Positions 17,801-46,060 are shown, numbered from the stretch's first letter. The stretch: 64,000 nucleotides of DNA from a virus (IMGVR_UViG_3300031753_000005:36-64035); one strand, 5' to 3'. Program-made: numbers and translations. The notes: generated from the sequence alone by a model not told the origin.

Positions 17801-18814
17801 ATGAACAGAGTAGCTGTGATTCTTGGGCGCCGCATGAAAGAAGACTTCGGTGTTTTCCTCTCCTTGCTTATATTGCTTGGGTTAGCGTACTTTGCTGCGG
17901 TATTCCTCAGTTATAGCTGGGGATCGGCGTACGGACAGAGCGTCCCGGTTTGGCTACCGAACCTACAGTTCAAGATAGGCTCGATCGGCGAGTTCCTGGT
18001 GCAGAGCCGCTGTCCGGACGGCTCGCCGCCGAACAACTGCGACCAGCCGTATCAGATGACCGACGCGATGTCACTCACCTGGCACAAGCGCGATTGGCCC
18101 GGCCCCTACGACGGCCTGTTTAGCGACAGCGTGTGGACGGCCTCGGGAGGAGTGCTGTCGACCTTCAGCGTCGAGCCGGATCACCCATGGGTGCCGCCAA
18201 ACGACGGCGGGGACATCTACGGCATCGACACCAGCGTCGACCCCGTGAGGGTGCTCGTGCTGAAGACGCAGACGGGGGACATTCCTCACCCCTACTACTT
18301 CATCGGTGCGAATTGCGGGGGAACCGGATGGGTGCTGTTCGACGCGGCGCTTCCGGTGCTCCCGGCTTATTACTATGGCGGAAATGCCAAGTGGCGGTCC
18401 GTCACGGCGCAGATCGGCCAGGCCGATTCGCCGAGCGGGTGCGCACCGCTCTCGCCAGCGTTTACGCAGTATCACATGGAGCTTGTCGACGTCCCGTTCA
18501 TCATATTCGGCACGCACACCACGCTGCGGATTCCGACGATCATCAGCGAGCATTACGACGGTCCCTCGCCGAGCCAATCCGTGAACCTTGAGCGCTTTTG
18601 GTTCGCGCTGGGCTGGGGAAAGATCCGCTGGGATTTCTATTCGGCAGACCGGCCGTCGCGAGGCGACATTTCGGGTGCTTGCCCTCGCATGCCACCGTGG
18701 GATTATGTGCCCCCGTTCCCGGGCGCGCAGCTCACCGATTGCCGCGTCTGGACCAACATTACAGCTGCGGACGGCAGTTTTAAGCTCAACCAATATGGCT
18801 GGGGATGGCCATGA
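17801..18814 (+). CDS. Exported Cys-containing beta protein
   Basis: N-terminal hydrophobic segment with SAYG-QS cleavage-like site; ERFWFALGWGKIRW motif; several Cys. Confidence 0.65.
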   Translation: MNRVAVILGRRMKEDFGVFLSLLILLGLAYFAAVFLSYSWGSAYGQSVPVWLPNLQFKIGSIGEFLVQSRCPDGSPPNNCDQPYQMTDAMSLTWHKRDWPGPYDGLFSDSVWTASGGVLSTFSVEPDHPWVPPNDGGDIYGIDTSVDPVRVLVLKTQTGDIPHPYYFIGANCGGTGWVLFDAALPVLPAYYYGGNAKWRSVTAQIGQADSPSGCAPLSPAFTQYHMELVDVPFIIFGTHTTLRIPTIISEHYDGPSPSQSVNLERFWFALGWGKIRWDFYSADRPSRGDISGACPRMPPWDYVPPFPGAQLTDCRVWTNITAADGSFKLNQYGWGWP

Positions 18815-24542: not shown

Positions 24543-25157
24543 ATGATGTGGAAATGGATTCGCCGGCTCGCTGTCTTATACATCATCTGGGAGGTTTTCT
24601 TATCCCCCGGCACTGGACTGATTCAGACGCATGCGCAGAGCGCTTGCACTATCGCGGGCAACCCTGGGGGGCAGCTTGGCACGCAGGGCACGTCGCTTGG
24701 CACAATGACCAATGAGCAGGTGGAGATTGAGGGCGGATGCATCGACAGCACGCCCATCGGTCAGAATACGCCCGCTGCAGGCTCGTTTACGACCGAGACC
24801 ACCACCGGCAATCAGACTGCGACCGGCGCGCTCAACACATTCGGCACCTCGACCAGCGCACCCGCGCACATCGGCAGTGCCCAAACTACCGCACCCGTGC
24901 CCACATCCTGCGGCACAGGCTCGCCATCGGTCGCCGGCAGTGATACCGCTGGCATCATCACGATGGGGACCAGCGCCACGGGCTGCATCGTCACGTTTAA
25001 CAGGGCCTACACTGGCACGCCGATCTGCTCGGTTGATTGGCAAACCAATCTTGCATCGATGGTGTTTACCGTTTCGCCGTCAGCGATCACACTGACGCAG
25101 ACCTCCGCCAGCGGCAATCTGGTGGATTATTTCTGTGTCGCGCCGGCCGGAGGCTGA
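24543..25157 (+). CDS. Signal-peptide-bearing Thr/Ser-rich fibre-like protein
   Basis: Basic-hydrophobic N-terminus ending THA-QS; C-terminal TSCGT..GSDTAG..C.VTF..Y...PIC domain; 6 Cys. Confidence 0.7.
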   Translation: MMWKWIRRLAVLYIIWEVFLSPGTGLIQTHAQSACTIAGNPGGQLGTQGTSLGTMTNEQVEIEGGCIDSTPIGQNTPAAGSFTTETTTGNQTATGALNTFGTSTSAPAHIGSAQTTAPVPTSCGTGSPSVAGSDTAGIITMGTSATGCIVTFNRAYTGTPICSVDWQTNLASMVFTVSPSAITLTQTSASGNLVDYFCVAPAGG

Positions 25158-31202: not shown

Positions 31203-32740
31203 TGCCGACGCCGCCGCCGATCACTCTCCCGATCGCGCCCTACGCGCCTGACCAGCCGGGGGCGCCGGCAGCCCAGGCTGCAAAAAATGTGCGCGGCGTA
31301 TTTCCGCGGACCTCGACGAGCTATGGTGCTATGCCCCAGCCGACGCCGGTCTCTTCCGCGCTCGTCAATCAGTGCCAAGGCATGGGCACATTTCTGGGTT
31401 CGGCGGGGGTGGCGCATGTATTCGCCGGCGATCTGAGTCGCCTGTATCATATAGGGGGCGCCGGCACGACCCTCTCGTTCACCGATGCGTCAGCGGCCGG
31501 CGGATATAACGTCAGCCAGAATGATTTCTGGGAATTCGTTCATTTCAACGGCCAAGTGTTGGCTATTGAATATAACGATCCGATTCAGGCGTTCACATTA
31601 GGTGCCGGCACCCATTTCAACAATCTCGCGGCAGCCGCACCGAAAGCAAAGCATATTGCCGTCATCAAAAATTCGTTCGTGATGGTCGGCAACACGCAAG
31701 ATCCGACGAATGGCGCGAAGGAGCAGCGCGTTTGGTGGTGCGCGGCAGGTGATGCCTCGAATTGGCCAGTGCCTGGCAGCCAAGTGGCCGCTCAATTCCA
31801 GTCTGGTGCCATCGATCTGCTTGGCGATGCCGGGCCCGTGAATGCCCTACGATCAGATCTGACCTCGGCGGATGGTCTTGTTTTCCAGCAAGACTCGTTA
31901 AGGCGCATCGTCTATGTGGGGCCGCCCGCGATCTTCGATTTTCTGCCGGCGCAGAATGGGCGAGGCACCTATTCGCCCTATTCGCCTGTGGTGGTCGGGG
32001 GCAACTGTTATTTCCCGGCCTTTGATGGATTTTATTCGTGCGACGGAGCCAGCGTTTCGCCGATTGGCTCGGATAAAATAAATCGCACCTTCCTCGATGA
32101 TTTGGCCAGCAATTATGCGACTGTGCAGGGCGCGAAGGATCCGATCCGGCAAGTCATATGGTGGTCCTATGCTGGGCAGGGCAGCATAAATGGCGTCCAC
32201 AATAGGATCATCGGCTATTCGTGGCTTTTCGATCGCTGGTGCATTCTCGATGTCGTCGCAGAAGCTATCGGCAACGCCTTTGCTTTTGGCTACACGTTAG
32301 ATCAGCTTTACACGGTGCTCGGCTATACGCTCGACAATTTGCCCGCACCTTTGGATTCCCCGCTATGGCAGGGCGGGACGCAGGTGCTCGGGGTTTTCGA
32401 TAGTTTGCATCAGCTGAATTTCTTTACCGGATCGGCGATGGCGGCGACCGTGGAGACCCAGGAGATGGAGCTTATCCCCGGGCAACGCTCGCTAATTACG
32501 GGTGTGCGACCGTTGGTCGACGGCACAAACGTCCAAACGCCAACGGTGGCGATTCAGCATCGCGAGCTCGGCGAGACGGTGCCGGCCGTGACGCCATATT
32601 CCGCGATCAACTCTCTGGGCAAAGCTCCGGTGCGGACGTCAGGCCGCTATGTGCGGGCCTCGATCTCGATCCCGGCCGGCGGCGATTGGACGAACATTTC
32701 CGGCGCGGCGGTCGACGCGGTGCCACAGGGACAAAGATAG
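31202..32740 (+). CDS. Tail nozzle / packaged-DNA stabilisation protein (beta-propeller)
   Basis: YAPDQP...KNV...; WEFVHFN; RVWW; PIGSDKINRTF; RTSGRY motifs. Confidence 0.82.
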   Translation: MPTPPPITLPIAPYAPDQPGAPAAQAAKNVRGVFPRTSTSYGAMPQPTPVSSALVNQCQGMGTFLGSAGVAHVFAGDLSRLYHIGGAGTTLSFTDASAAGGYNVSQNDFWEFVHFNGQVLAIEYNDPIQAFTLGAGTHFNNLAAAAPKAKHIAVIKNSFVMVGNTQDPTNGAKEQRVWWCAAGDASNWPVPGSQVAAQFQSGAIDLLGDAGPVNALRSDLTSADGLVFQQDSLRRIVYVGPPAIFDFLPAQNGRGTYSPYSPVVVGGNCYFPAFDGFYSCDGASVSPIGSDKINRTFLDDLASNYATVQGAKDPIRQVIWWSYAGQGSINGVHNRIIGYSWLFDRWCILDVVAEAIGNAFAFGYTLDQLYTVLGYTLDNLPAPLDSPLWQGGTQVLGVFDSLHQLNFFTGSAMAATVETQEMELIPGQRSLITGVRPLVDGTNVQTPTVAIQHRELGETVPAVTPYSAINSLGKAPVRTSGRYVRASISIPAGGDWTNISGAAVDAVPQGQR

Positions 32741-33265
32741 ATGCCTCCCACTAATGTCGGCGTAATATATTCTGCCGGGCGAAAAATTCTCCGGCGCATC
32801 GTTGTTCCCGATACTGAGCCTCAGCCATTTGAATGGCAGCAACACACAGTACATCAGGAGAAAATTACCTTAATTCCACATTCTGGTGATTGGAGCCATG
32901 CAGGGTGCATACAAGCAATCGCGCATGCTGAAAATCTCGAAAATATTCCAACAGGTCGGTGCGCTGTTGTGGATAGTGCCGGAAATGTAGTGAGTGTTAT
33001 CTCGGCAGATATACATCTAGATGCCATAGATGGATATTCATTAATCGAATCTGATTTAGCCAATATAGCTGATCACTATAATGTTGAAATCCACAATGAT
33101 TTTTCACGCCGTTATGCGATAGTGAATACGGCTACTAGAATCGTCACAGCGATTTCTTACCTTGCAATCATTGGTGCTATGCCGCCGGATAGTAGTCATT
33201 TTTTAATTAATTCTAATGTATTACAAATTGGCGATGCAGTGCCAATATTGCTACATACTATCTAG
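32741..33265 (+). CDS. Low-GC protein, possible fibre chaperone
   Basis: AT-rich; two AVVD/AIVN..V..I units; precedes the Gly-rich fibre gene. Confidence 0.55.
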   Translation: MPPTNVGVIYSAGRKILRRIVVPDTEPQPFEWQQHTVHQEKITLIPHSGDWSHAGCIQAIAHAENLENIPTGRCAVVDSAGNVVSVISADIHLDAIDGYSLIESDLANIADHYNVEIHNDFSRRYAIVNTATRIVTAISYLAIIGAMPPDSSHFLINSNVLQIGDAVPILLHTI

Positions 33266-33268
33266 CCA

Positions 33269-34252
33269 ATGGCCCGCATTTTTATTCTATCCGGCACTTC
33301 CTGGCCAGTCCCTCCTGATTGGACCTCTTCTAATAGTATTGAGACAATTGGGGCTGGCGGCGGCGGCTCTGACACTGTAACCGGTGTAGCCTACGGCAAT
33401 GGTGGCGGTGGTGGGGAATATCGCTTAGCTAGCAACGTCGCTGGCCTTAGTGGCTCACTGACTATTGGCGTCGGTAGCGGTGGTTTGCATGGATCTGTTG
33501 CTGGGGGTGGGGGCGGTACTTGGTTCAACGGAGCAACACTCGGTGTATCTACTGTTGGCGCTAATGGGGGTGGTGGTGGCACTGATGCAGGCGGTGGCGC
33601 TCCCGGTATAGGTGGGACTGGAGGTCACGGAGGAACTATTAATTGGGATGGTGGTAGCGGTGGCACAGCGGCTCTAGCAAACGCCACAGGTGCTTCGGGC
33701 GGCGGCGGTGCTGCTGGACCATTCGGAGCTGGGCTAGCGGGCGCAGGGAACGCTGGTGCATTCCTTTCTGATACGGGCGGTGCCGGTGGGGGTGGAACTG
33801 GTGACCCAGCAAGTGGAGCGGCAGGGTCCGGGACTGCTGGAAGCATTATTCCAAGTAAGACTGTTGGTGGCACTGGCGGCAAAGGTGAGAATGGCACAGC
33901 GGGGGGGGTTGGTGGTAGCGGCGCAGGTGCCGCTGGCAGTTCTGGATCGCAGGGTTCTGGTGGCGGCGGTGGTGGAAGTTCAGGGACTACTGGGGGCGCT
34001 GGCGGCACTGGGGGCAATGGTATTGAATGGGATGCATCGCATGGGGCTGGTGGCGGTGGTGGGGCTGGCGGCGGCGGCTCTGCGTCGGATGGTGGCTTTG
34101 GCGGTGGTGGTGGCCTTTATGGAGGTGGTGGGGGTGGTGGTGGCTTTTCCGGGAGTGCAAACGTTGGTATAGGTGGCAATGGTGCAAATGGCATTATTGT
34201 CGTGACTTATACGCCTTCGGGTCTATTTCTCTACCCACAAGCCTGCATGTGA
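33269..34252 (+). CDS. Glycine-rich fibre protein
   Basis: SGTSWPVP...IGAGGGG...GGNGANGIIVVTY glycine-rich domain. Confidence 0.8.
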   Translation: MARIFILSGTSWPVPPDWTSSNSIETIGAGGGGSDTVTGVAYGNGGGGGEYRLASNVAGLSGSLTIGVGSGGLHGSVAGGGGGTWFNGATLGVSTVGANGGGGGTDAGGGAPGIGGTGGHGGTINWDGGSGGTAALANATGASGGGGAAGPFGAGLAGAGNAGAFLSDTGGAGGGGTGDPASGAAGSGTAGSIIPSKTVGGTGGKGENGTAGGVGGSGAGAAGSSGSQGSGGGGGGSSGTTGGAGGTGGNGIEWDASHGAGGGGGAGGGGSASDGGFGGGGGLYGGGGGGGGFSGSANVGIGGNGANGIIVVTYTPSGLFLYPQACM

Positions 34253-34279
34253 ACAGGCTCCGATACAGGGACTAGCCAC

Positions 34280-34639
34280 ATGAGAAATTCCCAGCGATCC
34301 AAAGAGTCGTATCTGCTGGTAGACCACCGTGCCAGTCCTGGATTGACGCCCGAGATGGCCCGTCGAATGGGCTATATTCCCGAGCTTGTCGCCGAGGGCA
34401 AGGTATTCGAGGCGCCGACGCTCACTTGCGCGCACTGCCGAACAATCGCGATCATGAACCTGGATCGGACGCGGGCGCGCGGTCGCTGTAACTACTGCGA
34501 CAGCTATGTTTGCGACGTATGCGCGCTGGCGATGATGAGCCCGGATTACATCCATTTACCCTGGCAGAAGCGTGTCGACGACCATATGGACGCCGAGGCT
34601 CGCCCGGACCCGTTCGTGCTGGCACCGATCTTGCGATGA
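34280..34639 (+). CDS. Zn-finger protein
   Basis: CAHC...CNYC...CDVC...H motifs. Confidence 0.7.
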   Translation: MRNSQRSKESYLLVDHRASPGLTPEMARRMGYIPELVAEGKVFEAPTLTCAHCRTIAIMNLDRTRARGRCNYCDSYVCDVCALAMMSPDYIHLPWQKRVDDHMDAEARPDPFVLAPILR

Positions 34640-35406
34640 CCCGTTCGCTCTTCGTCGCGACACCAATGTACGGCGGGCAATGCTACGGCGATTTTGCGGC
34701 TTCGCGGCAAAATCTGCTGGGGCCTTTGACGCAGCGAGGCATATCGGTCAGGACGTGGGGCGTTGCTGATAGCCTCGTCACTCGCGCCAGGAATTATTGC
34801 GCAGCCGAATTCATGAACGGCGACATGACGGATATCCTATTCGCCGACGCCGATGTGTCATTCGAGCCGCAGGGCGTGCTCGACCTGATGTCGCATCCCG
34901 ATAAGGATGTGGTCTGCGGCGCATATCCCAAGAAGGAGATCAATTGGGCTCTGGTGCGGGACGCGGTCAAGCTCGGATTTGCTGACGACGACCCCGCCGT
35001 ATTAGAGAACTTTACCAGCACGTTTTTCTTCCATCCGGTTCATCCCGAATTGCCTCATCAGATTGCCGATCCACTTGAGGTGCGGGAGACGGGAACGGGA
35101 TTCATGCTGATTAGACGGCATGTGCTGGAAGCGTTCCAACATGCTTATCCCGAGCTCTATTATTATTCAAATCCCGACGAGAGAGTGTATCAGGGGCAAA
35201 AAATTCCCTGTTTCTTCGATACCGAAATCGTCAATCATCGATACCTCTCTGAGGATCAGAACTTCTGTCGTTTGGTGATTGCGCTCGGGATGAAGGTGTG
35301 GGTTCTGCCCCACATACAGCTCACGCATTTGGGATATTACAAGTTTATTGGGAATGTCAGCGCAATAACGGCAGTGCAACAGGCTAAGGAGCAATCGAAT
35401 GAATGA
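34636..35406 (+). CDS. GT-A (GT2-like) glycosyltransferase
   Basis: VATPMYGG, SLVTRARN, FADAD (DxD), GAYPKK, GTGFMLIRR, SEDQNFC and L.H.G motifs. Confidence 0.88.
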   Translation: MTRSLFVATPMYGGQCYGDFAASRQNLLGPLTQRGISVRTWGVADSLVTRARNYCAAEFMNGDMTDILFADADVSFEPQGVLDLMSHPDKDVVCGAYPKKEINWALVRDAVKLGFADDDPAVLENFTSTFFFHPVHPELPHQIADPLEVRETGTGFMLIRRHVLEAFQHAYPELYYYSNPDERVYQGQKIPCFFDTEIVNHRYLSEDQNFCRLVIALGMKVWVLPHIQLTHLGYYKFIGNVSAITAVQQAKEQSNE

Positions 35407-35734
35407 TCATCTAGACGCAATTCGCGAGGCATTGGAAGAGTTTGTCCGCAAGCGCGATCCTGTGCCGCAACCCGCCGAAGAGGATTTTGCAAACCTCGAT
35501 GCGTACCATTCCGCACTCGCGGAATGGCTTGCCAGCAGGAGCGCGCGTCGGGACGCGGCCCTCAGCGATGACCTGCGGGGCGCCTTTCGCAACGTTGAAG
35601 ACCTGACTGCGTTTTTTGCCAATCCGCCAGATGTGTTGGCGAGATTGCCATTATCTCCAGAGCCGCCTTTGGTGCCTTCGGAAGCCGGCCCTGTAGTGCA
35701 ACCTGAAGGCATCAGAAATGAAGGACTCGACTGA
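35399..35734 (+). CDS. Acidic hypothetical protein
   Basis: Overlaps both neighbours. Confidence 0.55.
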   Translation: MNDHLDAIREALEEFVRKRDPVPQPAEEDFANLDAYHSALAEWLASRSARRDAALSDDLRGAFRNVEDLTAFFANPPDVLARLPLSPEPPLVPSEAGPVVQPEGIRNEGLD

Positions 35735-36252
35735 TGGCTAAAAGGCTATTTCAAACCAGCAACTGGACGCCAGCGTTGACGGCTGACGCCGCGACACTGG
35801 CGAATGCGTCGTACATGGCAGTAAAGGGCGGCACCACGACCCAATATCTCGATTTTCTCGAATTCTCGATCTCGGGAATGGCCGGCGCGTCGTCTCCAAC
35901 TCCGCTGACCTTCGCTCGCTCCTCGACCTTGGCAGTTGGGCCGAGCGCGTTGGCGGCCCCCGCGAGCGACGGCCCAGCCAATCCGTTTACTGCAGCCCTT
36001 GGCACGGCTCCCGTTTCATTTACGGCGGTCGCAACTACGGGGGGTCAGCGATCGGGCGCGACTACCGACGCTAAGCTGCAGCTCGGGATCAATGCGTTCG
36101 GCGGGATTCTCCGTTGGAGTGCCGCGCCTGGACAGCAGTTCAGCTCTTACGGCAACGCTGTGACGTCGCCAGCCGGCGAGTCATATCTGTCGGCTCAGAA
36201 CTACGGCACGGCGGGATTGATCCAGGCGTCTATAATATACGAGCCGATGTGA
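35734..36252 (+). CDS. Ala/Thr/Ser-rich beta-sandwich virion protein
   Basis: AAGGA RBS; INAFGGILRW motif; C-terminal IIYEP. Confidence 0.7.
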   Translation: MAKRLFQTSNWTPALTADAATLANASYMAVKGGTTTQYLDFLEFSISGMAGASSPTPLTFARSSTLAVGPSALAAPASDGPANPFTAALGTAPVSFTAVATTGGQRSGATTDAKLQLGINAFGGILRWSAAPGQQFSSYGNAVTSPAGESYLSAQNYGTAGLIQASIIYEPM

Positions 36253-36283
36253 GTTCCGCAACGCCGCGGGCCTGGAGTATGGA

Positions 36284-36526
36284 ATGATGAAGCACAAGTG
36301 GAATTCTGACTCCGTCTCATGGCTTGATGGTCCAGATGCTGTTCCTGCCCCAATGTGCTCTCTTCGCCTTCCATGTAAGTGCGGCGAGGTGGCTCTCTAT
36401 AAAGAGGCGGTCGGGAGATTCTACGTGGACTCTGCGACTCTCAAAAAAGGCACAATCAGGGTGGGAAGCGCCGAGGAAGCGATCAGAAGGTGGCATCAAA
36501 TTGAGGCGGGAAGCTCGTCGCAGTGA
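36284..36526 (+). CDS. Small hypothetical protein
   Basis: PCKCG...AEEAIRRW pattern (Lar-like Zn ribbon remnant). Confidence 0.45.
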   Translation: MMKHKWNSDSVSWLDGPDAVPAPMCSLRLPCKCGEVALYKEAVGRFYVDSATLKKGTIRVGSAEEAIRRWHQIEAGSSSQ

Positions 36527-39204
36527 CGTTCCGACCGCCGGTCATCGTTCCGCGATGGGAGGTCGATCCGGCGGGCATAACCCGCAAATCGCAGGATGGC
36601 GTCCGCGCCAATCTTCTGCTGACGACGCTGCGCTCGCGCGATCGTATCTACGAAGCTCAAGGGCAGGGGATCCCGCAATATGACTGGCCAACTCCGCCCC
36701 CGGCTCGCCAACCCGAGCGGTCATGGTCGTCAGGAGCTCTTGTCCTCTCTACCCTACAAAGCCGGGATACAATCTACGGCCCTCAAGGCAAGGGGGTTCC
36801 GCAATATGACTGGCCAACTCCACCGCCGGCTCGCCAGCCAGATCGCTCGTGGTCATCTGGCAGCCTCGTGGTCTCGACCCTATACGGTCTTGATCGGGTC
36901 TATGGGCCTCCAGGCGAGGGTATTCCTCAATATGATTTCCCCACCCCGCCGCCTGCGTATCAGCCCACGAGGTCTTTCGTTGCTCCGTTCAGGCTCGGAG
37001 CGGATGCGAAGCTGCTTAACCAGAATTATGATTATCCCACGCCACCGCCTCCTCTGCCGAGAGATAGGTTTTACGGGCAAACACTTGTTTCCCTTACTCT
37101 CAATAGTCAAGACGCAAGCACACGAGGAGCGCCGTTCTATGATTTGACGAATAGGGGTTTCGTCCAGCCGGATCGTTCTTATTCGCAGAATATACCCAAA
37201 CCCCTATATGGCCAACCACCATCGCCTTTTGCTCAATACGACTGGCCGTTGCCGCGGTCGCCAATACAGCCCGATCGGTTCTATTTTAGCGATCTGCTGT
37301 TCGCCACCCTGCTGCATAAAGACGCACTGATTAACGGCGCGCAATTTACTGACTTGGCGAAAACGCCCGCCCCGCCTGACCGGACTTATGTTCAGCCCGG
37401 AATCAAGATCAATCCAATACCGCGCAATCAATTTGATTGGCCTGTTCCCCAGGTACCGCTCCAGCCCGATCGCGCATACTCCCAGACGCTGAACTATTTG
37501 ACCCTTGCTAGCCAGGACGCCACTGGAGCCAGCGGCGGTCTATCCGGCTCCTCTGTTGGGCCAATGGAGTTGCCACGAGCGGCGTTACAGCCAGACCGCA
37601 ACTATTACACATACCCTCAGCTGTTCTCACTTGTAACTCCGCTCGTCGGGCCGATTTCTGGGGCGCCGATTTCATCTGGCCCAATCACCGGTAGCCCGCC
37701 GGGCCCGATTATCCAGATTCCGCTGCACAATGTTTCATTCGAATTGCCCCGCGTTCCGCTGCCACCGAATCGAGGCTATTCGCAAACTCTGTCATCAAGC
37801 ACATTGCTGCACAACGACAGGATGTTAGCCGGTCGCCAAACAAGCGAAATTCCCCAAACGCCTGTTCAGCCAAATCGATCGTTCATTTCATTCGTCAACC
37901 CGGCAGTCGTTGTGTTTCCGTTTTCTCAGGTGGACTGGTCGGTGCCACGGATAGCTCTGCAACCGGAGCGATCCTGGCAACAAAACCTTATCTCTAACAC
38001 ATTGCAGAATCGCGATACGCTTATATTCAGTAAGCAGGAAGCGGTAATGCCGCTGATCCCGGTTCGCGCAGTGCAGACGATTATGTTTCGGCCGTCGCCG
38101 GCGACGATTCCTCCAGTGCCATTTGCCCAGCTTGACTGGCCTCTTCCCAAGACAGCATTGCAGCCGGAGCGGTCGTGGTGGCAGGCTCTGGTCGCCGGCA
38201 CACTCAAGAGCCAAGATGCAGCGCGAGCCGTAGGTCAAGCCGGGGAGTTACCGCGCTCGGTCATTCAGCCAGATCGCAGCTACCTGCAGAATACGGCACT
38301 TGTTAGCTATGCGGCGCAAATCCCATTTGCTCAACTCGATTGGCCTATTCCAAAGGTGCCGCTGCAACCCGACCGCTCCTGGTGGCAAGACCTTGTCTTC
38401 GCGACGCTTTACAATCAGGACGCAAGGGTGGCCGGTGCTCAGCTGATTCAGGAGCTCGCGAAAAGCCCACTCCAGCCGGATCGCTCGTTTGTACGCGTCA
38501 CTCTCCTCCCCGCGATCAGCTTTCCTCCATCACCTTTTGCTCAGCGCGACTGGCCGCTGCCGACGAGAGCCGTTCAGCCTGAGAGATTTTGGTCGCAAGC
38601 TCTAATCTCGCTCACGCTGTTTGGTAAGGACGTAAGAATAATCAGCACACAATCCGCTGAATTGACAAATATAGGGACTCTCCAGCCGGAGCGGTTCTGG
38701 CAGCAAGATCTCATCATCGATACGCTGTTCGGCCAAGATGCGATAATTACCAGAGGACAGCTGGCTGATTTGGCAAACGGAACATTTCAGCCCGATCGCT
38801 TCTATGCGCGAGGGATGGATGCTCTCATATTTCAATTGTTATTCCCATTCCAGCCTCCCGCGCCGGCGCCGGCATTAGTGGTCACAGGATATCCGGCTGT
38901 GCCGCTATGGCAGACGAGTTCGCCTCAGACGTGGTCGGCGCGAATAGGCGACATCTTGAGCAAGGTCCAGCAAGGCAAGCAGAACGTCACGCTGAAAATC
39001 ACGCTGGCGGCCGGCACATCGACCGTCGTCATCGATCCCCGGATAAGCGCAACATCTGCGCTGACTTTCACGCCGCTGACGGCCGATGCCGCCGCAATCC
39101 TAAGCAGCATCTATGTGAGCGCCCAACGGGCCGGCCGGGCCACGCTGATATATAGCAGCACGGCGAAGACGGATTGTACCTTCACCCTACTTATTCAAGG
39201 GTAA
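36523..39204 (+). CDS. Pro-rich tandem-repeat protein with C-terminal tail-associated domain
   Basis: About 19 QP[DE]R-aromatic repeats, many preceded by Q.DWP.P; last ~90 aa (QGKQNV...TLAAG..T...DPRI...P.TA.AA) resemble a small podovirus tail protein. Confidence 0.8.
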   Translation: MTFRPPVIVPRWEVDPAGITRKSQDGVRANLLLTTLRSRDRIYEAQGQGIPQYDWPTPPPARQPERSWSSGALVLSTLQSRDTIYGPQGKGVPQYDWPTPPPARQPDRSWSSGSLVVSTLYGLDRVYGPPGEGIPQYDFPTPPPAYQPTRSFVAPFRLGADAKLLNQNYDYPTPPPPLPRDRFYGQTLVSLTLNSQDASTRGAPFYDLTNRGFVQPDRSYSQNIPKPLYGQPPSPFAQYDWPLPRSPIQPDRFYFSDLLFATLLHKDALINGAQFTDLAKTPAPPDRTYVQPGIKINPIPRNQFDWPVPQVPLQPDRAYSQTLNYLTLASQDATGASGGLSGSSVGPMELPRAALQPDRNYYTYPQLFSLVTPLVGPISGAPISSGPITGSPPGPIIQIPLHNVSFELPRVPLPPNRGYSQTLSSSTLLHNDRMLAGRQTSEIPQTPVQPNRSFISFVNPAVVVFPFSQVDWSVPRIALQPERSWQQNLISNTLQNRDTLIFSKQEAVMPLIPVRAVQTIMFRPSPATIPPVPFAQLDWPLPKTALQPERSWWQALVAGTLKSQDAARAVGQAGELPRSVIQPDRSYLQNTALVSYAAQIPFAQLDWPIPKVPLQPDRSWWQDLVFATLYNQDARVAGAQLIQELAKSPLQPDRSFVRVTLLPAISFPPSPFAQRDWPLPTRAVQPERFWSQALISLTLFGKDVRIISTQSAELTNIGTLQPERFWQQDLIIDTLFGQDAIITRGQLADLANGTFQPDRFYARGMDALIFQLLFPFQPPAPAPALVVTGYPAVPLWQTSSPQTWSARIGDILSKVQQGKQNVTLKITLAAGTSTVVIDPRISATSALTFTPLTADAAAILSSIYVSAQRAGRATLIYSSTAKTDCTFTLLIQG

Positions 39205-39214
39205 TGAGCTGACA

Positions 39215-40531
39215 ATGATGCTCCTCCTCCGCGTCCTGGCGGTTGCGCTCGCATGCCTATTGCCGTTTGGGGCAGAGCAGTCGGCGCGTGCAAAGCTATA
39301 CGATATGGTCGAAATGACCGTCGCGAGCGCGCCAGGGCTCGGCACAATCACACTCGGCACAGCGATTCCCCCATATCAGTCATTATCGGCGACCGCCGTC
39401 GCACCCGGCGAAACGGTCTCCTATCATATCGCTGATATCAATAACAACTGGGAAAATGGCCGCGGTGTCGTCACTCTCAGTCCGAACATAACGATCACTC
39501 GGGGCGTGATCAGCTCGAGCAACGCGAATGCGCTAATTAACGCGAGCGCAGGAGCCATCGTCTGGATTGTGCCGAACGCCGCCGATATGGTCATGACGCA
39601 ATATCCGTCGACAATTAGTGCTGCGGTTGCGGAGACTCCCTGTGTGCTAACATCCGCCGCTACCGTGACGGTAAGCGGGGCATGCGATGTTTATACGCTC
39701 ACCGTAGCTAATGATCCGGCTCTTCTCAGTAATCCCACGTCCACCTTGCTCGGACAGTGGCTTACGTTTTTTATCACACAGGACGTGACAGGCAATAGAC
39801 GAGTCCCGTTTGGCTCTAATTATATATTTTCCGGGGGATGGAATGCTGCGGTGCTCTCGACGGGAGCAGGGAAAACCGACGCCTTCGCTTGCAAGACCCT
39901 CGTCGCCAATGGCGCAATGTACTGCACCCCGCCAGTCGTAGATTTCTATGTTGGGTCACGAGAGACATGGAGCCCCACGCAAAAGAATGCCGTATTTACT
40001 CTTAGCCCCAACAATCAGACGGCAACCGCGGGCACCGTCGCGGCCGATTCCGTCGTATTGGGTTCTGCCGGCGTATCGGCAGGAAAGATTTTTTTTGAAA
40101 TAGACTATACGGGCAGCCAAGCCAATTGTTGCAACGGCGTGGGATTGGGCAATATCAATACAAGCACGGTGACCGGCCAGTATCTTGGAATTGATAACAA
40201 TGGCATTGTTTACAATAACCAGGGCAGCGTGGTGTCGAACGGGACGACCGTGGCGACAATCGCGACCTATACAACCGGCGCCCAAATATGTGTCGCGGTC
40301 AACCTCAATACTAATCTGCTCTGGTTCCAGCCACTCGGCGCTGGGCAATGGGATAATAATGGCACAGACAATCCCGCGACGGGGATCGGAGGCTACTCCA
40401 TAGCCAACGTTGCCGCTGCGGCAGTCGTTCCCGGCGGAACCGTCAATAACACGGGAGTGGCGTTCGTGCTTAAACCGAGCTTGGCATGCGCCGGCGTGAG
40501 CGGCCTTGCTGGCTTTGGTGTAATGCCATGA
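39215..40531 (+). CDS. Signal-peptide tail-fibre-like protein with C-terminal SPRY/B30.2-like domain
   Basis: ARA-K signal site; GTITLG...Y.I.D..WE.G.G...SSN fibre N-terminal domain; GKIFFEI..GVGL...ICVAVNL SPRY pattern. Confidence 0.75.
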   Translation: MMLLLRVLAVALACLLPFGAEQSARAKLYDMVEMTVASAPGLGTITLGTAIPPYQSLSATAVAPGETVSYHIADINNNWENGRGVVTLSPNITITRGVISSSNANALINASAGAIVWIVPNAADMVMTQYPSTISAAVAETPCVLTSAATVTVSGACDVYTLTVANDPALLSNPTSTLLGQWLTFFITQDVTGNRRVPFGSNYIFSGGWNAAVLSTGAGKTDAFACKTLVANGAMYCTPPVVDFYVGSRETWSPTQKNAVFTLSPNNQTATAGTVAADSVVLGSAGVSAGKIFFEIDYTGSQANCCNGVGLGNINTSTVTGQYLGIDNNGIVYNNQGSVVSNGTTVATIATYTTGAQICVAVNLNTNLLWFQPLGAGQWDNNGTDNPATGIGGYSIANVAAAAVVPGGTVNNTGVAFVLKPSLACAGVSGLAGFGVMP

Positions 40532-41823
40532 TAGCGCGTATGGCTAAAATCTCAGCAGTCATTGGCCTGCTGGCTGTCCTCGCTATTCCGGCCGAGCCTA
40601 GCATCGCGCAATTCACGCCTCCGTTACTATTACAGAATACGATTGCCGCTAAAAAACCAAAGCCACCACCGCGCCCGCCTGCGTTCGACGCGGTAGCATA
40701 TAGTCCAAATGCGAGTAACGCAGTTATAGGATTGACGACGACGACAGCAGCATTTCCGCTGGGCTGGCAAACCTACGGAACTACGTTTTCTTATAACACC
40801 ACAACGTTTCGCGATCCCGAGATACTTACCAATCAGCAAGGGGCGGCTACTAAAGTAAACGGGCATTATTGGTTGGCCTTCACTGCGATCTCCGCTGCTA
40901 ATTTCAACAACGGCAGCGAACAAGCGTCGTCTTTCGGATTGGCATATTCTGATGATCTAGCTACATTTACCTTTTCACAGTTCGTATCGTGTTTCTCGTC
41001 AGTTCCTGCGACTCCTATCTGCTGGGCACCAAAGGGTTATATCGACAATTCTGGAGGGATGCACTTTATCGTGTGCGCTGGGACCAATCAGAATTTCGGC
41101 ACCCAGGACATGCAACCAACAGAGGTGCATCCGCTCACGTCTGACCCCAACGGGGCATGGTCAGTTCCCCTGACCATTACTGGCACAGCACTCCCAGCCG
41201 GCGGTTTTGATTACCGTATCCAGCAAGATGGATCAGGGACGCGGTATATGTTTTATGTAGTCGATGCGCCGCCCGGCGGTGGAGAATTTACGGGGTTAGT
41301 CAGCAGTGCATCTGATTTCTCAGGTTATAATACGCTGATATCTTCCAACGTGGTTGGTAATCCCAATACGCAATCGTTTGAATCGCCGCAAGCCTTCAAG
41401 CAAGGGAACGCATGGTATCTTTTTGGTTACTGGAATGTTAACACTTCCTATGCGACATCATCAGCTATTTCTGGCCCGTATTCCGCACTGACGCAGCTTG
41501 GGCAAAATTCTCAAGTTGACATGACCGGAATCTTTGCCGGCCCGCTTGCCCCGACGTACGTCACATTTGACACCAACCCGGTAAGCGTGCCCGATACGTC
41601 GGCGCTACACACCGCCGTCACTGGCGTCACGGTCGTCGTGCCTGGCGGGCCACCCTATCAGGGAACGCCCACTGTGCAGTCCTGCTCGCAATCGCCGTGT
41701 CCGTTTGGGATCACGGGCTCGACGGGCAACTGGTCGCTCCAGACGATTTTGAACCCGAGCGGCGGTACTCCACCCACTCTGACGGACGTCAACAACGCAA
41801 CTCTGGTGATTAATGCGCCGTAG
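40528..41823 (+). CDS. Signal-peptide protein with GH43-like beta-propeller
   Basis: SIA-Q signal site; RDPEI, WAP, ESP and WYLF motifs of five-bladed glycosidases. Confidence 0.65.
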   Translation: MIARMAKISAVIGLLAVLAIPAEPSIAQFTPPLLLQNTIAAKKPKPPPRPPAFDAVAYSPNASNAVIGLTTTTAAFPLGWQTYGTTFSYNTTTFRDPEILTNQQGAATKVNGHYWLAFTAISAANFNNGSEQASSFGLAYSDDLATFTFSQFVSCFSSVPATPICWAPKGYIDNSGGMHFIVCAGTNQNFGTQDMQPTEVHPLTSDPNGAWSVPLTITGTALPAGGFDYRIQQDGSGTRYMFYVVDAPPGGGEFTGLVSSASDFSGYNTLISSNVVGNPNTQSFESPQAFKQGNAWYLFGYWNVNTSYATSSAISGPYSALTQLGQNSQVDMTGIFAGPLAPTYVTFDTNPVSVPDTSALHTAVTGVTVVVPGGPPYQGTPTVQSCSQSPCPFGITGSTGNWSLQTILNPSGGTPPTLTDVNNATLVINAP

Positions 41824-42958
41824 CATCCTCCTCGTCATCGCGACGCTCGGGCTCGCGCTCCTCTCCGTCCTGGCCCACGCCGTCACCGGCACTCTAACCT
41901 ACAACATCACGTCCGGCGCCGGCACTGTCGCCTGCGATCTTGGACCCAATTACATCGGGTCCATCCCGGCCGGTGCGCAGGCCGCAGGTTTCACGCACTG
42001 CGCTGGCAACTACGATTTCACCCAATCAACGCCGTTCACGTACATGGGACAAACAGTAACGTGGTCTAACACGCCCATCTGGCTTCAATGCACAGGCCAG
42101 GTTCCAGCAAATCCTTTGTGGTATGGGTATAGCGAAAACGGCCCGACGACACCGTGCAGCGATTACCCGATCATGATTGACAACAACGGCGATGCCGGCG
42201 CAAGCGGCGGTCAGGTGTTAGGTGTGATCTTCACCCAGGCGGACTTTAACAACAACGTTCAGGTGACAAATCTCGCTACGGCGAACAACCAGAATTACCC
42301 GAACCCGGCAGGCACGTCGTTCCCAAATGGGGCGTATCTCGAATGGGTGGCGCGCATGACGAATGCCACTTATGCGAGCCACCAACCCAAGAACTATTTT
42401 TTCAACCTCTGGGAAAGCAGCCCGCAGGCGCAGTGGGTCGAATTTGATCAGATGGAGATATTCGGAACCGGTGTAGGCGCCGGGGCCGGCTTTGGGGAGC
42501 ATGGATGTAACGGCAGCTTCGGGTGCCCAGGCTACCCGGCGCTATCCCACGTCAGCGATAGCTCGATTACCACCTGGGATCCTACGAAATATCAAAATTA
42601 CGGCTGGCGATGGACGCATGATGCGAATGCCAATTTCGGAGCCTGCGTCTACTGGAACGGCACGCAGATTCCCCCACAGCAAGGCGGCACGCGCCAGCCT
42701 TGCGATAGCGGGTCATACTTCAACGGAGTTTCCGATCCTGCATTCACGAGCCAGCGAAACCAATTGATAATCTGGTCAGGGCCGAACGAAAACTCCACTA
42801 CAGCCAATTGCTCCGATGATGGAGTAAACCTTGTTATCTGTAACCCCCCCGCTGGTGGAAACGTTACCTTAGTGCAACGGGTGACGGTCTGGGTGCCGCC
42901 CTCGTGTATATGGCAGACGCAGCCGTGCATTACCACTGTGGATGTTGGCGCCCCATGA
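41813..42958 (+). CDS. Signal-peptide Cys-rich protein, GH16/ConA-like
   Basis: AHA-V signal site; EFDQME (ExDxxE) motif; YQNYGWRW...YWNG. Confidence 0.65.
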   Translation: MRRSILLVIATLGLALLSVLAHAVTGTLTYNITSGAGTVACDLGPNYIGSIPAGAQAAGFTHCAGNYDFTQSTPFTYMGQTVTWSNTPIWLQCTGQVPANPLWYGYSENGPTTPCSDYPIMIDNNGDAGASGGQVLGVIFTQADFNNNVQVTNLATANNQNYPNPAGTSFPNGAYLEWVARMTNATYASHQPKNYFFNLWESSPQAQWVEFDQMEIFGTGVGAGAGFGEHGCNGSFGCPGYPALSHVSDSSITTWDPTKYQNYGWRWTHDANANFGACVYWNGTQIPPQQGGTRQPCDSGSYFNGVSDPAFTSQRNQLIIWSGPNENSTTANCSDDGVNLVICNPPAGGNVTLVQRVTVWVPPSCIWQTQPCITTVDVGAP

Positions 42959-43677
42959 AGTGGGTCCGCGGGCCGTGGTGGGATGGGTTCTGGTTGCTTA
43001 GCGGGCTGCCGATCGGGCTTGCGCTGGTGCTGACTTCAAATGGCAGGGGCATTGGTCCGATAATCGCAATGACGATCATGGTTCTGGAAACTGCCCATGT
43101 CGTGACGCCGATTGCCCTGGCTTTTGTCCGCCGTGAACTGGGCGATATCGTGCTGAGAAAGCCGATTAAGTGCGTCGGCGTGCCGCTCGCTCTTGTCGCC
43201 GCATCGCTTGTCGCCCCAGCGTCCTGGTTCGCCGGTCCCTATTTCGCGTGGAATATCTTTCATTTCGGGATGCAGAACTTTGGAGTGCTCTCGCTCTATG
43301 GCATCATTGGAGATCGAGTGAAGCGCGGCGCGCTGTGCCTTGGAGTAACCGCTCTCGGGATGGGGCTGCCGGCTCTGGTTCCCAATCAGTATTACCTCAT
43401 GTTCGGCGTGGGATTCTTCGGGTTTAATCATTGGCTTGCCGACATCGGTCTGTCGAGCCGAGTCGTGCGTTGGCATTGGGGATTTATCGTCATGGTGTTG
43501 GCTATCGGTGTCGGATGGCTCTTGCTGCGCAATGGTCCACTCTCGGCGCAGTTGGCGCCCCAGATAATTGCGTTCCGTTATGCCATAGGGATGGCGCATT
43601 TCATCTTGGAATCGGAGTTTTGGAAGTTCAGCAACCCGCGGGTGCGGGCGACGATCGGGAAAGAGTTATTTGCATGA
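42955..43677 (+). CDS. Polytopic membrane protein with four His motifs
   Basis: About 7 hydrophobic segments; TAHV, WNIFHFGMQN, FNHW and AHFILESEFWK motifs. Confidence 0.7.
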   Translation: MKWVRGPWWDGFWLLSGLPIGLALVLTSNGRGIGPIIAMTIMVLETAHVVTPIALAFVRRELGDIVLRKPIKCVGVPLALVAASLVAPASWFAGPYFAWNIFHFGMQNFGVLSLYGIIGDRVKRGALCLGVTALGMGLPALVPNQYYLMFGVGFFGFNHWLADIGLSSRVVRWHWGFIVMVLAIGVGWLLLRNGPLSAQLAPQIIAFRYAIGMAHFILESEFWKFSNPRVRATIGKELFA

Positions 43678-44120
43678 GGCTGATCAACGATGCAGGCCGG
43701 GCGATCATCAAGGAAAGCGAAGGGCTGAGCCTCACCGCCTACCACGACTTCGCCAAAGGCGTGCTGACGATTGGCTGGGGCCACACCGGCCCCGATGTGT
43801 TCGAGGGAGAGACCATCACCGAGGCGGTCGCCGAGCAGCTTCTCATCCAGGATTTAGCCTACACATGCGGCCAGGTAGCCGGCATGATGCCGTGGGCAAA
43901 CGACAATCAGTTCTCAGCCTGCGTCAGCCTGGCATACAACATCGGTGTCGCGGCGTTTCAGACCAGTTCTGTGCTGAAGGCATCGCGCGCCGGTGACCGA
44001 ATCGGCACCGCCAGAGCCTTCCTGCTTTGGGACAAGGCCCATGTCGACGGCCATCTCGTCGAGGTAGAGGGCCTTTTCGAGCGCCGAATCGACGAGGTTT
44101 CCCTTTATCTAGATACGTGA
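43674..44120 (+). CDS. Endolysin, GH24 lysozyme
   Basis: ESEGLSLTAYHD...TIGWGHT...NQFSACVSLAYNIG...W.K...GL..RR..E. Confidence 0.92.
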   Translation: MRLINDAGRAIIKESEGLSLTAYHDFAKGVLTIGWGHTGPDVFEGETITEAVAEQLLIQDLAYTCGQVAGMMPWANDNQFSACVSLAYNIGVAAFQTSSVLKASRAGDRIGTARAFLLWDKAHVDGHLVEVEGLFERRIDEVSLYLDT

Positions 44121-44137
44121 GAATGCCCCGATCTGTC

Positions 44138-44500
44138 ATGAAAGCTTCGGCATTTGCCGTCGCAATTCTAACCTGCGGGGGAAGCTGGGTCAAAGACGGC
44201 TACACTAACGACCCGAACATCCTCTGCATAAACGGTCATCCAGCACCAAGGCGCCCCCACGTCACCTACGGCCACTTGCCAACCAAACCCTGCTGTGAAC
44301 GCGACCACATCTGCCCACTCGGCCTCGGATGCCCAGATACGCTCGACAACTTGCAGTACCAACCTTGGCTAGAAGCGCGCGTAAAAGATGGCGACGAACG
44401 CCGCGCAGAGCACACTTATTGCAAAAACCCAAGTCCAGCTCTTCTCGATCGATTACGCTCAACATTCACTCGAACTTACCCGTTGCAAGGAAAACAATGA
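44138..44500 (+). CDS. HNH-like protein with hydrophobic N-terminus
   Basis: ERDHICPLGLG..D...NLQYQ...KD..E motif. Confidence 0.55.
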   Translation: MKASAFAVAILTCGGSWVKDGYTNDPNILCINGHPAPRRPHVTYGHLPTKPCCERDHICPLGLGCPDTLDNLQYQPWLEARVKDGDERRAEHTYCKNPSPALLDRLRSTFTRTYPLQGKQ

Positions 44501-44934
44501 TCGAACCGACCCTACTGATAGCGATCATCGTCGCGGTTTCCGCGATCATGCAAACCATCCTCAATAGCTGGCAGGCGAAAAGAAGGCAAAAGGCCGATTG
44601 GCGTCGTCAGGATGGAGTCGCCGAGAAAGCGGAAGAGACCGCGAGTCTGCTGCTAAAAACCCAGAAAGAGAACATCCGCCGGACCGACGAGGTCGCCCGC
44701 GTCGCGGCCATCTCGGCGAACCAGACGCATGACCAGCTAAGCGAGATCCATGGTCTCGTCAACAGCGACATGACAAAAGTCCTGCAGGCCGACCTCGATC
44801 AGACTCGCGTCACGTTGGCGCTCCTCCGCAAGCTGGGAGATCCAGATATGGATTTGCTGCATACTACTGAGTGTCGCATAACCGAATTGGAGCGAGTGCT
44901 CGCCACCCGTCCTAAAAGTGCGAAAGGGATTTGA
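44497..44934 (+). CDS. Single-TM coiled-coil protein (holin/lysis-associated)
   Basis: N-terminal TM; IHGLVNS motif. Confidence 0.6.
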   Translation: MIEPTLLIAIIVAVSAIMQTILNSWQAKRRQKADWRRQDGVAEKAEETASLLLKTQKENIRRTDEVARVAAISANQTHDQLSEIHGLVNSDMTKVLQADLDQTRVTLALLRKLGDPDMDLLHTTECRITELERVLATRPKSAKGI

Positions 44935-44935
44935 A

Positions 44936-45178
44936 ATGAACGTTTCTAAAGTCGACATGGAAGCCGCCCAAGGGGCGTGGGACGATGTTTTCGGCCATCT
45001 GCCGGGCAATCTCCCACTCGTTGTCAGATTGGCGCAGCATTTTGCGGATCATCGGTCGAAGGCGGCCCACGATGCGAAGCCTAAATCGGAAGAGCTAGGC
45101 GGCGTGGCGAACCTGTCGGAAGCCGCCCAGGAGGAAATCCACGAGGCTGAGAGAGCCGAGAAAGCGGAGAAGGCATGA
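44936..45178 (+). CDS. Small protein with GGVANLSEAAQ module
   Basis: Module shared with 24061-24333. Confidence 0.55.
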   Translation: MNVSKVDMEAAQGAWDDVFGHLPGNLPLVVRLAQHFADHRSKAAHDAKPKSEELGGVANLSEAAQEEIHEAERAEKAEKA

Positions 45179-45369
45179 TATTCTTGACCTGGCTGGGGGC
45201 TCGCCTTAGCGAGTCGACCACTTGGCTCGGGATCGCCTCCGGTTTCGGCGCGCTCGGGGCAGCGCTTGCCGCAGGCGGCCTCGTCCAGACAGGTCTTATC
45301 GTGGGGGCTCTCGGAGCGGGCGCCGGTGGCGTGGGTGCGTTCATCACGAAGGAGAAGGGCAGTGCGTAG
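45175..45369 (+). CDS. Putative holin
   Basis: RLSESTTWLG motif, two TM segments, charged C-terminus. Confidence 0.7.
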   Translation: MIFLTWLGARLSESTTWLGIASGFGALGAALAAGGLVQTGLIVGALGAGAGGVGAFITKEKGSA

Positions 45370-45997
45370 GCTGGCGTTCGTGGCGCTTCTGGCGCTCGCT
45401 GGCTGTGCAACTGGTCCGCAGCCTCCTCCGCCGGGCCCGACGCTGGCGGATATCGACGCGACGTGGACGCAACTCGAGACGACAGCGGTCCCTCCCGAGG
45501 CTATCCTGGCTATCGGCTCGGCGCTCGACGACGTCTCGTGCTATGGGTGGCTCGACCAGCAGATCCTCGGCTCGCAGCAATCGTCTGCCCTACAGGGGAT
45601 ATTAGGCGCGGGCGGCGGCATGGCCGCTATCGCCGGTGGTCCGGCCGGGATGGGAGCCGCGGCCGGCGCCGGGTTGCTCTCGTCGATACTAGGCGTCGCC
45701 CAGGCAAATTCACCGATAGGCAACGATCCGGTGGCGGCGTATGGGCTCGTCCTAAAGATGAGACAGACGTGGCAGGCCGGGGCGGGCATACCAATGACGC
45801 GCGAGGCGGCATGGGCGTTCGTCCAATCGTATCACGAGCTCTGTAGCCTTAGCGGCATACGCTTGGCGATGCATATGGCGGCGCTGACCGCGCCGGTGTC
45901 GACTGCCTCGTCGGGCACGGGTTTTGCGGCTTCAGCTATGTCCGGCCGGCAAAGGCCGCCCGTTGTCATCGTCGGGGCACCCCTGGCGCAGCGCTGA
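45362..45997 (+). CDS. Lipoprotein (spanin-like candidate)
   Basis: GTG start; LLALAG-C lipobox; end of the lysis cassette. Confidence 0.65.
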   Translation: MRRLAFVALLALAGCATGPQPPPPGPTLADIDATWTQLETTAVPPEAILAIGSALDDVSCYGWLDQQILGSQQSSALQGILGAGGGMAAIAGGPAGMGAAAGAGLLSSILGVAQANSPIGNDPVAAYGLVLKMRQTWQAGAGIPMTREAAWAFVQSYHELCSLSGIRLAMHMAALTAPVSTASSGTGFAASAMSGRQRPPVVIVGAPLAQR

Positions 45998-46060
45998 CGT
46001 CTCGGCACCGGCCGGCTCGCAGTTCGAGCTTGAAAGGCGGTCCTCTAGCCGAAGGCATCT

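Follow-up and report, generated by a model that had tools for sequence, protein, structure and literature searches.

The viral record IMGVR_UViG_3300031753_000005, from a soil phage, comprises 64,035 bases and is complete by CheckV. The 64,000-nucleotide stretch of this record that was analysed here (positions 36-64035), hereafter called the window, contains three consecutive plus-strand genes, g1 (39215-40531), g2 (40528-41823), and g3 (41813-42958), whose products begin with leaders of the general secretory (Sec) type. The leaders are 26, 27, and 23 residues long, with predicted cleavage at ARA-K, SIA-Q, and AHA-V, respectively, and that of g1 is encoded at 39215..39292. The three genes are followed on the same strand by M (42955..43677), which encodes a polytopic membrane protein of an unnamed family, and by an endolysin gene (phage lysozyme; 43674..44120, plus strand; PF00959, E 3.4e-31; phrog_7). 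Directly upstream of g1 lies g0 (36523..39204, plus strand), which encodes a leaderless protein of 893 amino acids with a single cysteine (Cys). The start of g0 overlaps the preceding gene by 4 nucleotides (nt), g1 starts 10 nt past the stop codon of g0, the g1/g2, g3/M, and M/endolysin pairs overlap at ATGA, and g2 and g3 overlap by 11 nt. No enrichment of promoter-like or terminator-like sites was found in a scan. The arrangement looks like a single late operon running from tail genes into lysis genes, and g1-g3 are, on sequence grounds, translationally coupled to M and then to the endolysin gene.

Leaders were detected with a custom rule-based scan (a basic n-region, an h-region of ~7-15 residues, and small residues at -3 and -1) of 97 open reading frames (ORFs), the genes having been picked by a length-based method. 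The scan flagged 10 of these ORFs, namely six plausible genes (g1, g2, g3, 24543-25157, 17801-18814, and 52801-53184 on the minus strand) and four minus-strand ORFs, which we judge to be non-coding because they lie inside plus-strand gene blocks. As had been proposed in an earlier sequence-only reading of this DNA, g1, g2, and g3 start with leaders; direct reading and the scan both recognized a basic N-terminus, a core of hydrophobic residues, and small residues at -3/-1, and these features are kept in homologues. The g1 leader was modelled by AlphaFold2 (AF2) as a helix (residues 2-14). Leaders equivalent to that of g1 are present in P0002, P0003, P0029, P0032, P0067, and P0134; in P0002 and P0003, the N-termini differ from that of g1 but are equally leader-like and stand before a conserved ALYDMVEMTV. 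The sole relative of g2 that was found, P0008, keeps 25 of the first 35 positions, compared with an overall identity of 41%, and a leader is present in all 16 aligned relatives of g3 (16 of 18 matches; P0013 and P0026 were left out owing to low coverage). Since homologues keep the leaders, their translation in g1, g2, and g3 can be taken as settled at the level of sequence comparison. The objection that the true starts might lie downstream of the leaders is countered in g1 by the location of the conserved KLYD upstream of the internal ATGs; initiation at one of these would remove part of the domain. A twin-arginine (Tat) signal was considered for g3, which starts with MRRS, and was rejected in view of its strongly hydrophobic core and of the KK that stands in place of RR in the relatives.

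In the g1 product, the leader is followed by a tail-fibre N-terminal domain (N-domain), and a middle part connects this to a SPRY-like domain at the C-terminus. The N-domain (39293..39604, plus strand; residues 27-130) is a module common to leaderless tail fibres and tailspikes, and in g1 it begins at residue 27 rather than at the very N-terminus. A search with residues 27-135 against 1.84 billion representative proteins yielded 3467 matches at E<=1e-3, and the best 150 of these were used for all comparisons of leaders and Cys content in this family. The domain begins within the first few residues in 144 of these 150 proteins, as the sequence-only reading had indicated for leaderless tail proteins, whereas in the other six (g1, P0003, P0029, P0032, P0067, and P0134) it stands behind a leader whose A-x-A ends 0-3 residues before the domain. 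The leaderless relatives listed have phmmer E-values of 1e-19 to 1e-11 and identities of 39-56%, and their distal parts include Peptidase_S74, pectate-lyase-like, and tail-fibre/tailspike PHROG domains. As judged from these sequences, secretion leaders have been gained by the widespread N-domain family in at least three sequence-distinct groups among the best 150 relatives. The N-domain occurs in a single copy in the window genome, and that copy bears a leader; the same is true of the genome G003.

The AF2 model of g1 is trustworthy for the N-domain only (predicted local distance difference test, pLDDT, above 90; 30-50 in the SPRY-like part). The best solved match of the N-domain model is 8jov_1, a chain of the phage GP4 portal-tail complex, with a VIA-align Z of 8.3, only slightly higher than the usual noise level of 7-8, and a root mean square deviation of 2.7 over 104 residues; this chain was also the sole Foldseek match at E<=1e-3 (E 5.2e-4). 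Matches in BFVD include annotated tail fibres of the Burkholderia phages DC1 and BcepMigl. In the distal part of g1, residues 248-415 match phrog_10080 (E 1.4e-9), and residues 251-375 give a weak phmmer match to the PRY-SPRY domain of TRIM67 (E 0.008). No close relative of g1 was found among the viral contigs searched, a metagenome scan with P0002 gave no match, and the region of Bradyrhizobium phage ppBeUSDA76-2 is without the N-domain.

Richness in Cys, which had also been pointed out from the sequence alone, distinguishes the proteins with leaders. The mature parts of g1, g2, and g3 contain 8, 5, and 12 Cys residues (1.9, 1.2, and 3.4%), respectively, compared with 31 in 7210 residues (0.43%) in the window's 18 head and tail proteins that lack a leader. 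The comparison of homologues with and without leaders that had been suggested gave the same picture within one family: after the N-domain, Cys accounts for 38 of 1673 residues (2.27%) in the 6 leader-bearing proteins and for 205 of 36,245 residues (0.57%) in the 144 leaderless ones (Mann-Whitney p 1.8e-4 per protein), and the enrichment is confined to the leader-bearing members. The Cys count is even in all six leader-bearing proteins of the family and in 31 of the 95 leaderless proteins counted for parity, the remaining 49 of the 144 having no Cys at all. The cassette proteins of four phage contigs all have a leader (19 of 19); their Cys content is 2.21% (153/6914), and the Cys count is even in 18 of them. 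When the two sets were pooled, even counts were found in 22 of 23 leader-bearing proteins versus 31 of 95 leaderless proteins (Fisher p 1.7e-8). Paired Cys residues thus co-occur with the leader, as is predicted for proteins that fold in an oxidising compartment. Because the leaders are kept, Cys is enriched, and the Cys counts are even, actual export and disulfide folding outside the cytoplasm, as the sequence-only reading had envisaged, are well supported predictions.

The g2 product is composed of the leader, a five-bladed propeller resembling glycoside hydrolase family GH43, and a conserved C-terminal region of ~60 residues. For the Atlas model of g2, all ten matches listed are GH43/BT_3657-like (template modelling score, TM, 0.54-0.64) and share the five-bladed beta-propeller fold, while a comparison with PDB sequences returned only noise. 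On the basis of the model, g2 is predicted to be a GH43-like glycosidase. Between g2 and P0008, conservation is far higher at the two ends (the leader plus a few residues after it, and the final ~60 residues) than in the propeller that they enclose.

The g3 product consists of the leader and a GH16-like beta-jelly-roll. Its AF2 model (pLDDT 73; predicted TM score 0.78) gave 103 Foldseek matches in the PDB at E<=1e-3, with GH16 enzymes in the top ranks. At the place of the GH16 catalytic motif, g3 has an ExDxxE motif, E-F-D-Q-M-E (42440..42457, plus strand; residues 210-215), in which D212 and E215 are present in all 16 sequences of the family and E210 in 14 of them. We take this EFDQME to be the same motif as the ExDx(x)E of GH16 catalytic sites. 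Because the GH16 fold matches but no sequence model does, g3 is referred to as GH16-like on the basis of its model and not as a GH16 member.

An M gene adjoins a g3-family gene in all eight loci that hold M; the two genes abut in seven of these and are separated by 790 nt in L061, and two more g3 loci are too short for the neighbourhood of M to be judged. The M alignment contains 33 invariant columns, including four invariant histidines (residues 65, 120, 176, and 232 in the numbering of the 42904 ORF). M gave no match in Pfam, NCBIfam, or PADLOC, and its matches in the Atlas are to clusters named 'hypothetical' only. Two of the eight g3-M loci, L003 and L004, lie on chromosomes of uncultured Alphaproteobacteria (metagenome-assembled genomes, MAGs), where the neighbouring genes encode Wzm/Wzt, Wza, GT2, GT4, GtrA-GT2, and PMT_2 proteins; GtrA-GT2 was found in L003 only. 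These neighbourhoods mark g3-M, as far as gene content goes, as an unnamed two-gene module of bacterial O-antigen/exopolysaccharide (EPS) loci. The M copies are located at 15210-15947 in L003, 8034-8789 in L004, 10894-11517 in L005, 9491-10354 in L006, and 5209-5850 in L064, and the phage M of L005 is 73% identical to the chromosomal M of L003. An alphaproteobacterium is the probable host of the phage. In both chromosomal loci, a protein of ~440 amino acids is encoded before g3-M (L003, 12881-14215; L004, 5719-7026). A Laminin_G_3 (ConA-like) domain is present in the protein of L003, no Pfam match was obtained for that of L004, and the last ~80 residues of both resemble the end of a leader-bearing protein of 915 amino acids in L005.

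The phage contigs L005, L006, and L064 share the layout of the window, i.e. tail genes and, after them, a series of leader-bearing genes together with g3 and M. This run comprises eight leader-bearing genes in L005 (CBM_6 plus g3-like, and the 915-amino acid protein), three in L006 (GH54-like, and BNR_4 plus g3-like), and five in L064 (two g3-like), and lysis genes follow M in L005 and L064. The domains matched in these related cassettes are CBM_6, BNR_4, and ArabFuran-catal. The fibre N-domain was found in none of these three contigs. The occurrence of leaders is more general than the sequence-only reading had described.

The other genes of the record include those for a terminase large subunit, a P22-like portal protein, and a major head protein in two pieces, together with a gene for a nozzle-type protein (31202-32740) that is related to the nozzles of other podophages. 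Genes for an integrase, an Erf-type annealing protein, an exonuclease, and a repressor lie on the opposite strand. The head, nozzle, and lysozyme genes and the integrase, Erf, exonuclease, and repressor genes therefore identify the record, by its predicted gene set, as a temperate short-tailed phage. No near relative of the record was found among 50,697 GenBank phage records, and searches of GenBank phages with window positions 31000-46000, g1, the g1 N-domain, and g0 gave no match. The g0 product contains ~18 short QPDR[S/F][W/Y] motifs at a spacing of 30-42 residues, and its last ~100 residues look globular. No family, PDB sequence, or GenBank-phage match was obtained for g0, and no homologue was found in four related records. 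Two fibre candidates without a leader are also present in the window, at 11989-12876 (phrog_11393) and 16858-17793 (pectate-lyase-like). The latter is a protein of 311 amino acids with 6 Cys and a pectate-lyase-like start that matches tailspike PHROGs, and its gene lies directly upstream of that at 17801.

Two further genes, which had been grouped with g1-g3 as leader-bearing, were also flagged by the scan, but their N-termini are less typical. The product of 24543..25157 (plus strand, in the head-gene region; 204 amino acids) has a leader-like N-terminus ending THA-Q followed by 6 Cys, and its hydrophobic core contains a glutamate, so that it meets the leader pattern only weakly. The product of 17801..18814 (plus strand, downstream of 16858-17793; 337 amino acids) has an N-terminal hydrophobic stretch of ~25 residues, again followed by 6 Cys; this stretch looks more like a membrane or signal anchor than a leader. 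Neither protein gave a family match or a homologue, including in the four related records. The sixth flagged gene (52801-53184, minus strand) belongs to the early/lysogeny region, where it is flanked by the exonuclease and repressor genes. Its product, with 127 amino acids, a classical leader (ANA-A), and 4 Cys, is a candidate for an exclusion or conversion protein.

Downstream of the endolysin gene, 44329-44934 encodes a protein with one N-terminal membrane helix, 45175-45369 a protein of 64 amino acids with two membrane helices by look, and 45266-45997 a protein with a lipobox-like LAGC. By these features, the three are likely to be further lysis genes. Homologues of 44329-44934 (32% identity) and 45266-45997 (51% identity) are encoded after M in L005. 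In the head region, the major head protein (phrog_334) is encoded in two pieces, N-terminal and C-terminal, that are separated by a gene for an HNH endonuclease (21001-21414, 21521-22096, and 22406-22924), and the group I intron model RF00028 matches weakly across 21355-22187 (25 bits, under the gathering score of 50; E 0.001). The capsid gene is probably interrupted by an intron with an inner homing endonuclease.

Taken as a whole, the cassette may be a late, exported set of proteins that acts on the envelope polysaccharide of the phage's own host, a proposal that we hold to be about evenly poised between right and wrong. According to this proposal, g1, g2, g3, and M would be transcribed late as one cassette ending in the endolysin gene. 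Sec would export the three soluble proteins g1-g3, signal peptidase would remove their leaders, and they would fold with disulfides in the periplasm. From there, or after release by lysis, they would bind and cut the O-antigen, capsule, or EPS of the host: g1 as the binder, a fibre-derived protein of the lectin type; g2 as the cutter, a GH43-like glycosidase; and g3, with M as its partner, in cutting or transfer as a GH16-like glycanase or transglycosylase. The gain would likely be an easier escape of the progeny through the sugar coat together with destruction of the receptor on the dying cell. In this scheme, we infer the actual export, the substrate, the timing, and the absence of the proteins from the particle. 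Of the two functions that the sequence-only reading had offered, joining of the virion and remodelling of the host surface, the latter fits better, because g2 and g3 are glycosidase-like, g3-M is found in polysaccharide loci, and the related cassettes carry CBM6, BNR, and GH54-like domains.

Several observations weigh against an action on the host envelope. The match of g2 to the GH43 model (PF04616; E 1.1e-4) has 22.1 bits and falls under the 32.2-bit cut-off. The best structure match of g3, 6t2o, is modest (E 4.7e-6; TM 0.38 by query and 0.55 by target), and no GH16 sequence model in Pfam or NCBIfam matches g3, nor did a 16-sequence profile of its family find any PDB sequence at E<=1. The degradation of plant polymers is another typical setting for GH43, GH16, and CBM6. 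Moreover, g1 keeps a well-conserved fibre N-domain, the sole copy in this genome, which in its relatives is carried on fibres and tailspikes and which a pure envelope enzyme would not obviously need, and g1 follows g0, a repeat-rich protein of the tail module.

These last points lead to the alternative that g1, and perhaps the proteins at 24543 and 17801, are exported to acquire disulfides and then join the cytoplasm-built particle at lysis via the N-domain, possibly as dimers on the repeats of g0, with g2 and g3 possibly being free enzymes. It is consistent with the sharing of the N-domain with 144 leaderless proteins that have fibre or tailspike distal parts, with the best solved match of the domain by two methods being the GP4 portal-tail chain, and with its occurrence as the only copy both in this genome and in the leader-bearing G003. 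The ~18 short repeats of g0 lie just upstream of g1, the nozzle protein (31202-32740) is related to the nozzles of other podophages, and GP4, VP1, and A1002 are described, in the available part of the report, as hanging small fibre dimers on a multi-site 'rope' (PMC13730344). However, L005, L006, and L064 have the leader-bearing run without the N-domain, it is difficult to see where eight different exported proteins of a single phage would fit on a particle, and the window holds leaderless fibre candidates at 11989-12876 and 16858-17793. In addition, g0 has no detectable relative, and its role as a docking 'rope' for g1 is drawn by analogy only and is speculative. Joining of the virion by g1, which has the only fibre N-domain of the genome, is possible, but as an account of the cassette this alternative is doubtful. 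A scheme that combines both functions seems rather unlikely: g1 would be a true fibre subunit that passes through Sec and forms four disulfides in the periplasm and, after holin and endolysin have opened the cell, would load onto the ~18 repeats of g0 on finished particles, while g2, g3, and M clear the sugar coat.

Lysogenic conversion or superinfection exclusion, in which a cassette expressed from the prophage would alter or mask the receptor glycan and block related phages, is quite unlikely. The phage is temperate by its integrase, Erf, exonuclease, and repressor genes, genes similar to g3 and M occur in O-antigen/EPS loci of cells, and in temperate phages genes for receptor modification are often located close to the tail genes, all of which would suit such a function. 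Against it, there is overlap with the neighbouring genes, that of the endolysin among them, and no promoter-like or terminator-like signal sets the cassette genes apart. Furthermore, g1, g2, g3, and M have no GtrA, GtrB, GtrC, or acyltransferase-3 match in Pfam or NCBIfam, and the PADLOC defence models gave 0 matches to g0, g1, g2, g3, M, and the proteins at 17801, 24543, and 52801.

We regard as very unlikely the possibility that the genes are auxiliary metabolic genes, whose exported enzymes would break down environmental polysaccharide, from plants or fungi, and thereby nourish the infected or lysogenic host. The GH43-, GH16-, and GH54-like and CBM6 modules present in these cassettes are typical of hemicellulose and beta-glucan degradation. 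Prophage carbohydrate-active enzymes (CAZymes) with signal peptides have been surveyed as carbon-cycling genes, according to the accessible text of that survey (PMC13507307). Nevertheless, the cellular loci with g3 and M are O-antigen/EPS loci and not sugar-utilisation loci, coupling ties the cassette to tail and lysis genes, g1 has a fibre domain, and core viral functions have been argued, in the part of the preprint available, to account for much of the CAZyme signal of soil viruses (10.1101/2024.12.20.629349). Finally, it is barely credible that the leaders are not functional export signals, with the true starts downstream or the hydrophobic N-termini serving another role: no strong Shine-Dalgarno sequence precedes any of these starts, and g1 has an in-frame TTG at codon 16 and ATGs at codons 31 and 34, but the leader character is kept in independent homologues, KLYD stands upstream of the internal ATGs, cleavage is predicted 0-3 residues before the start point of the leaderless relatives, and the enrichment and parity of Cys would be left without explanation.

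In textbook accounts, the assembly of tailed phages is wholly cytoplasmic, and to our knowledge late phage proteins, with the exception of lysis and exclusion proteins, are not expected on the Sec route. The case described here is a conserved late cassette of predicted exported, disulfide-bonded, and glycan-active proteins in one lineage. If the cassette acts on the sugar coat of the host, it would serve phage exit or receptor destruction as an accessory arm that has not been described so far, and such proteins could be a source of stable secreted depolymerases. If, on the other hand, g1 joins the particle, virion assembly would have an extracytoplasmic last step. The literature searched contained no description of tail fibres with Sec leaders in tailed phages, although such descriptions may exist.

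Among known proteins, the leaderless fibres and tailspikes (P0005, P0028, P0030, P0056, and others) resemble g1 in having an N-domain of ~100 residues that is 40-56% identical and in having exchangeable distal domains. Unlike g1, they start with the N-domain and are poor in Cys (0.57%, with none in 49 of 144), whereas g1 and five others combine a leader with paired Cys. Periplasmic or secreted glycanases are also known from bacterial EPS and capsule loci, e.g. ExoK/ExsH, AlgL, and enzymes of the VexL type. As in those systems, g3 has a Sec-type leader, is GH16-like, and occurs within polysaccharide loci of the ABC-transporter type in two Alphaproteobacteria MAGs; the g3 family differs in having no match to a GH16 sequence model, in its pairing with the histidine-rich M, and in being phage-borne beside lysis genes.

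The chain-like fibres of the podophages GP4, VP1, and A1002, in which a protein with many docking sites holds small fibre subunits next to one another, offer a comparison for g1 and g0, and the available part of that report mentions no secretion signals on them (PMC13730344). The g1 N-domain matches a GP4 portal-tail chain and g0 has repeats, but there is no sequence similarity. In the A1002 fibre gp41, the first ~30 residues are absent from the map, and their proteolytic removal is suggested by the authors in the same portion of the text (PMC13730344). In the survey of prophage CAZymes, as far as its accessible part goes, signal peptides were found on 5% (3261/64,678) of the proteins and were read in terms of carbon cycling (PMC13507307). 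These soil-prophage enzymes resemble g2 and g3 as phage-borne, glycoside-hydrolase-like genes; that survey, in the same part, is a catalogue that describes neither fibre domains nor a membrane partner nor any cassette linked to tail and lysis genes (PMC13507307).

The closest cellular counterpart considered is WceF of Pantoea stewartii, which, in the sections of the source at hand, is a tailspike-like EPS glycanase that is exported by Tat and has retained an N-terminal domain for head binding like that of P22 (PMC7949094). Its gene accompanies polysaccharide genes, and the EPS that it cuts is that of its own cell. WceF differs from g1 in being chromosomal and in having a Tat signal, a beta-helix trimer, and a head-binding domain of the P22 type, as far as the same sections describe it, whereas g1 is phage-borne, has a Sec-type leader, an N-domain of another family, and a SPRY-like distal part, and is known from its sequence. 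WceF nevertheless shares with g1, whose export is predicted, a composition from phage tailspike parts, including an N-terminal domain which in phages serves attachment to the particle, and it is counted here as a cellular precedent for an exported cassette acting on the host's own envelope polysaccharide.

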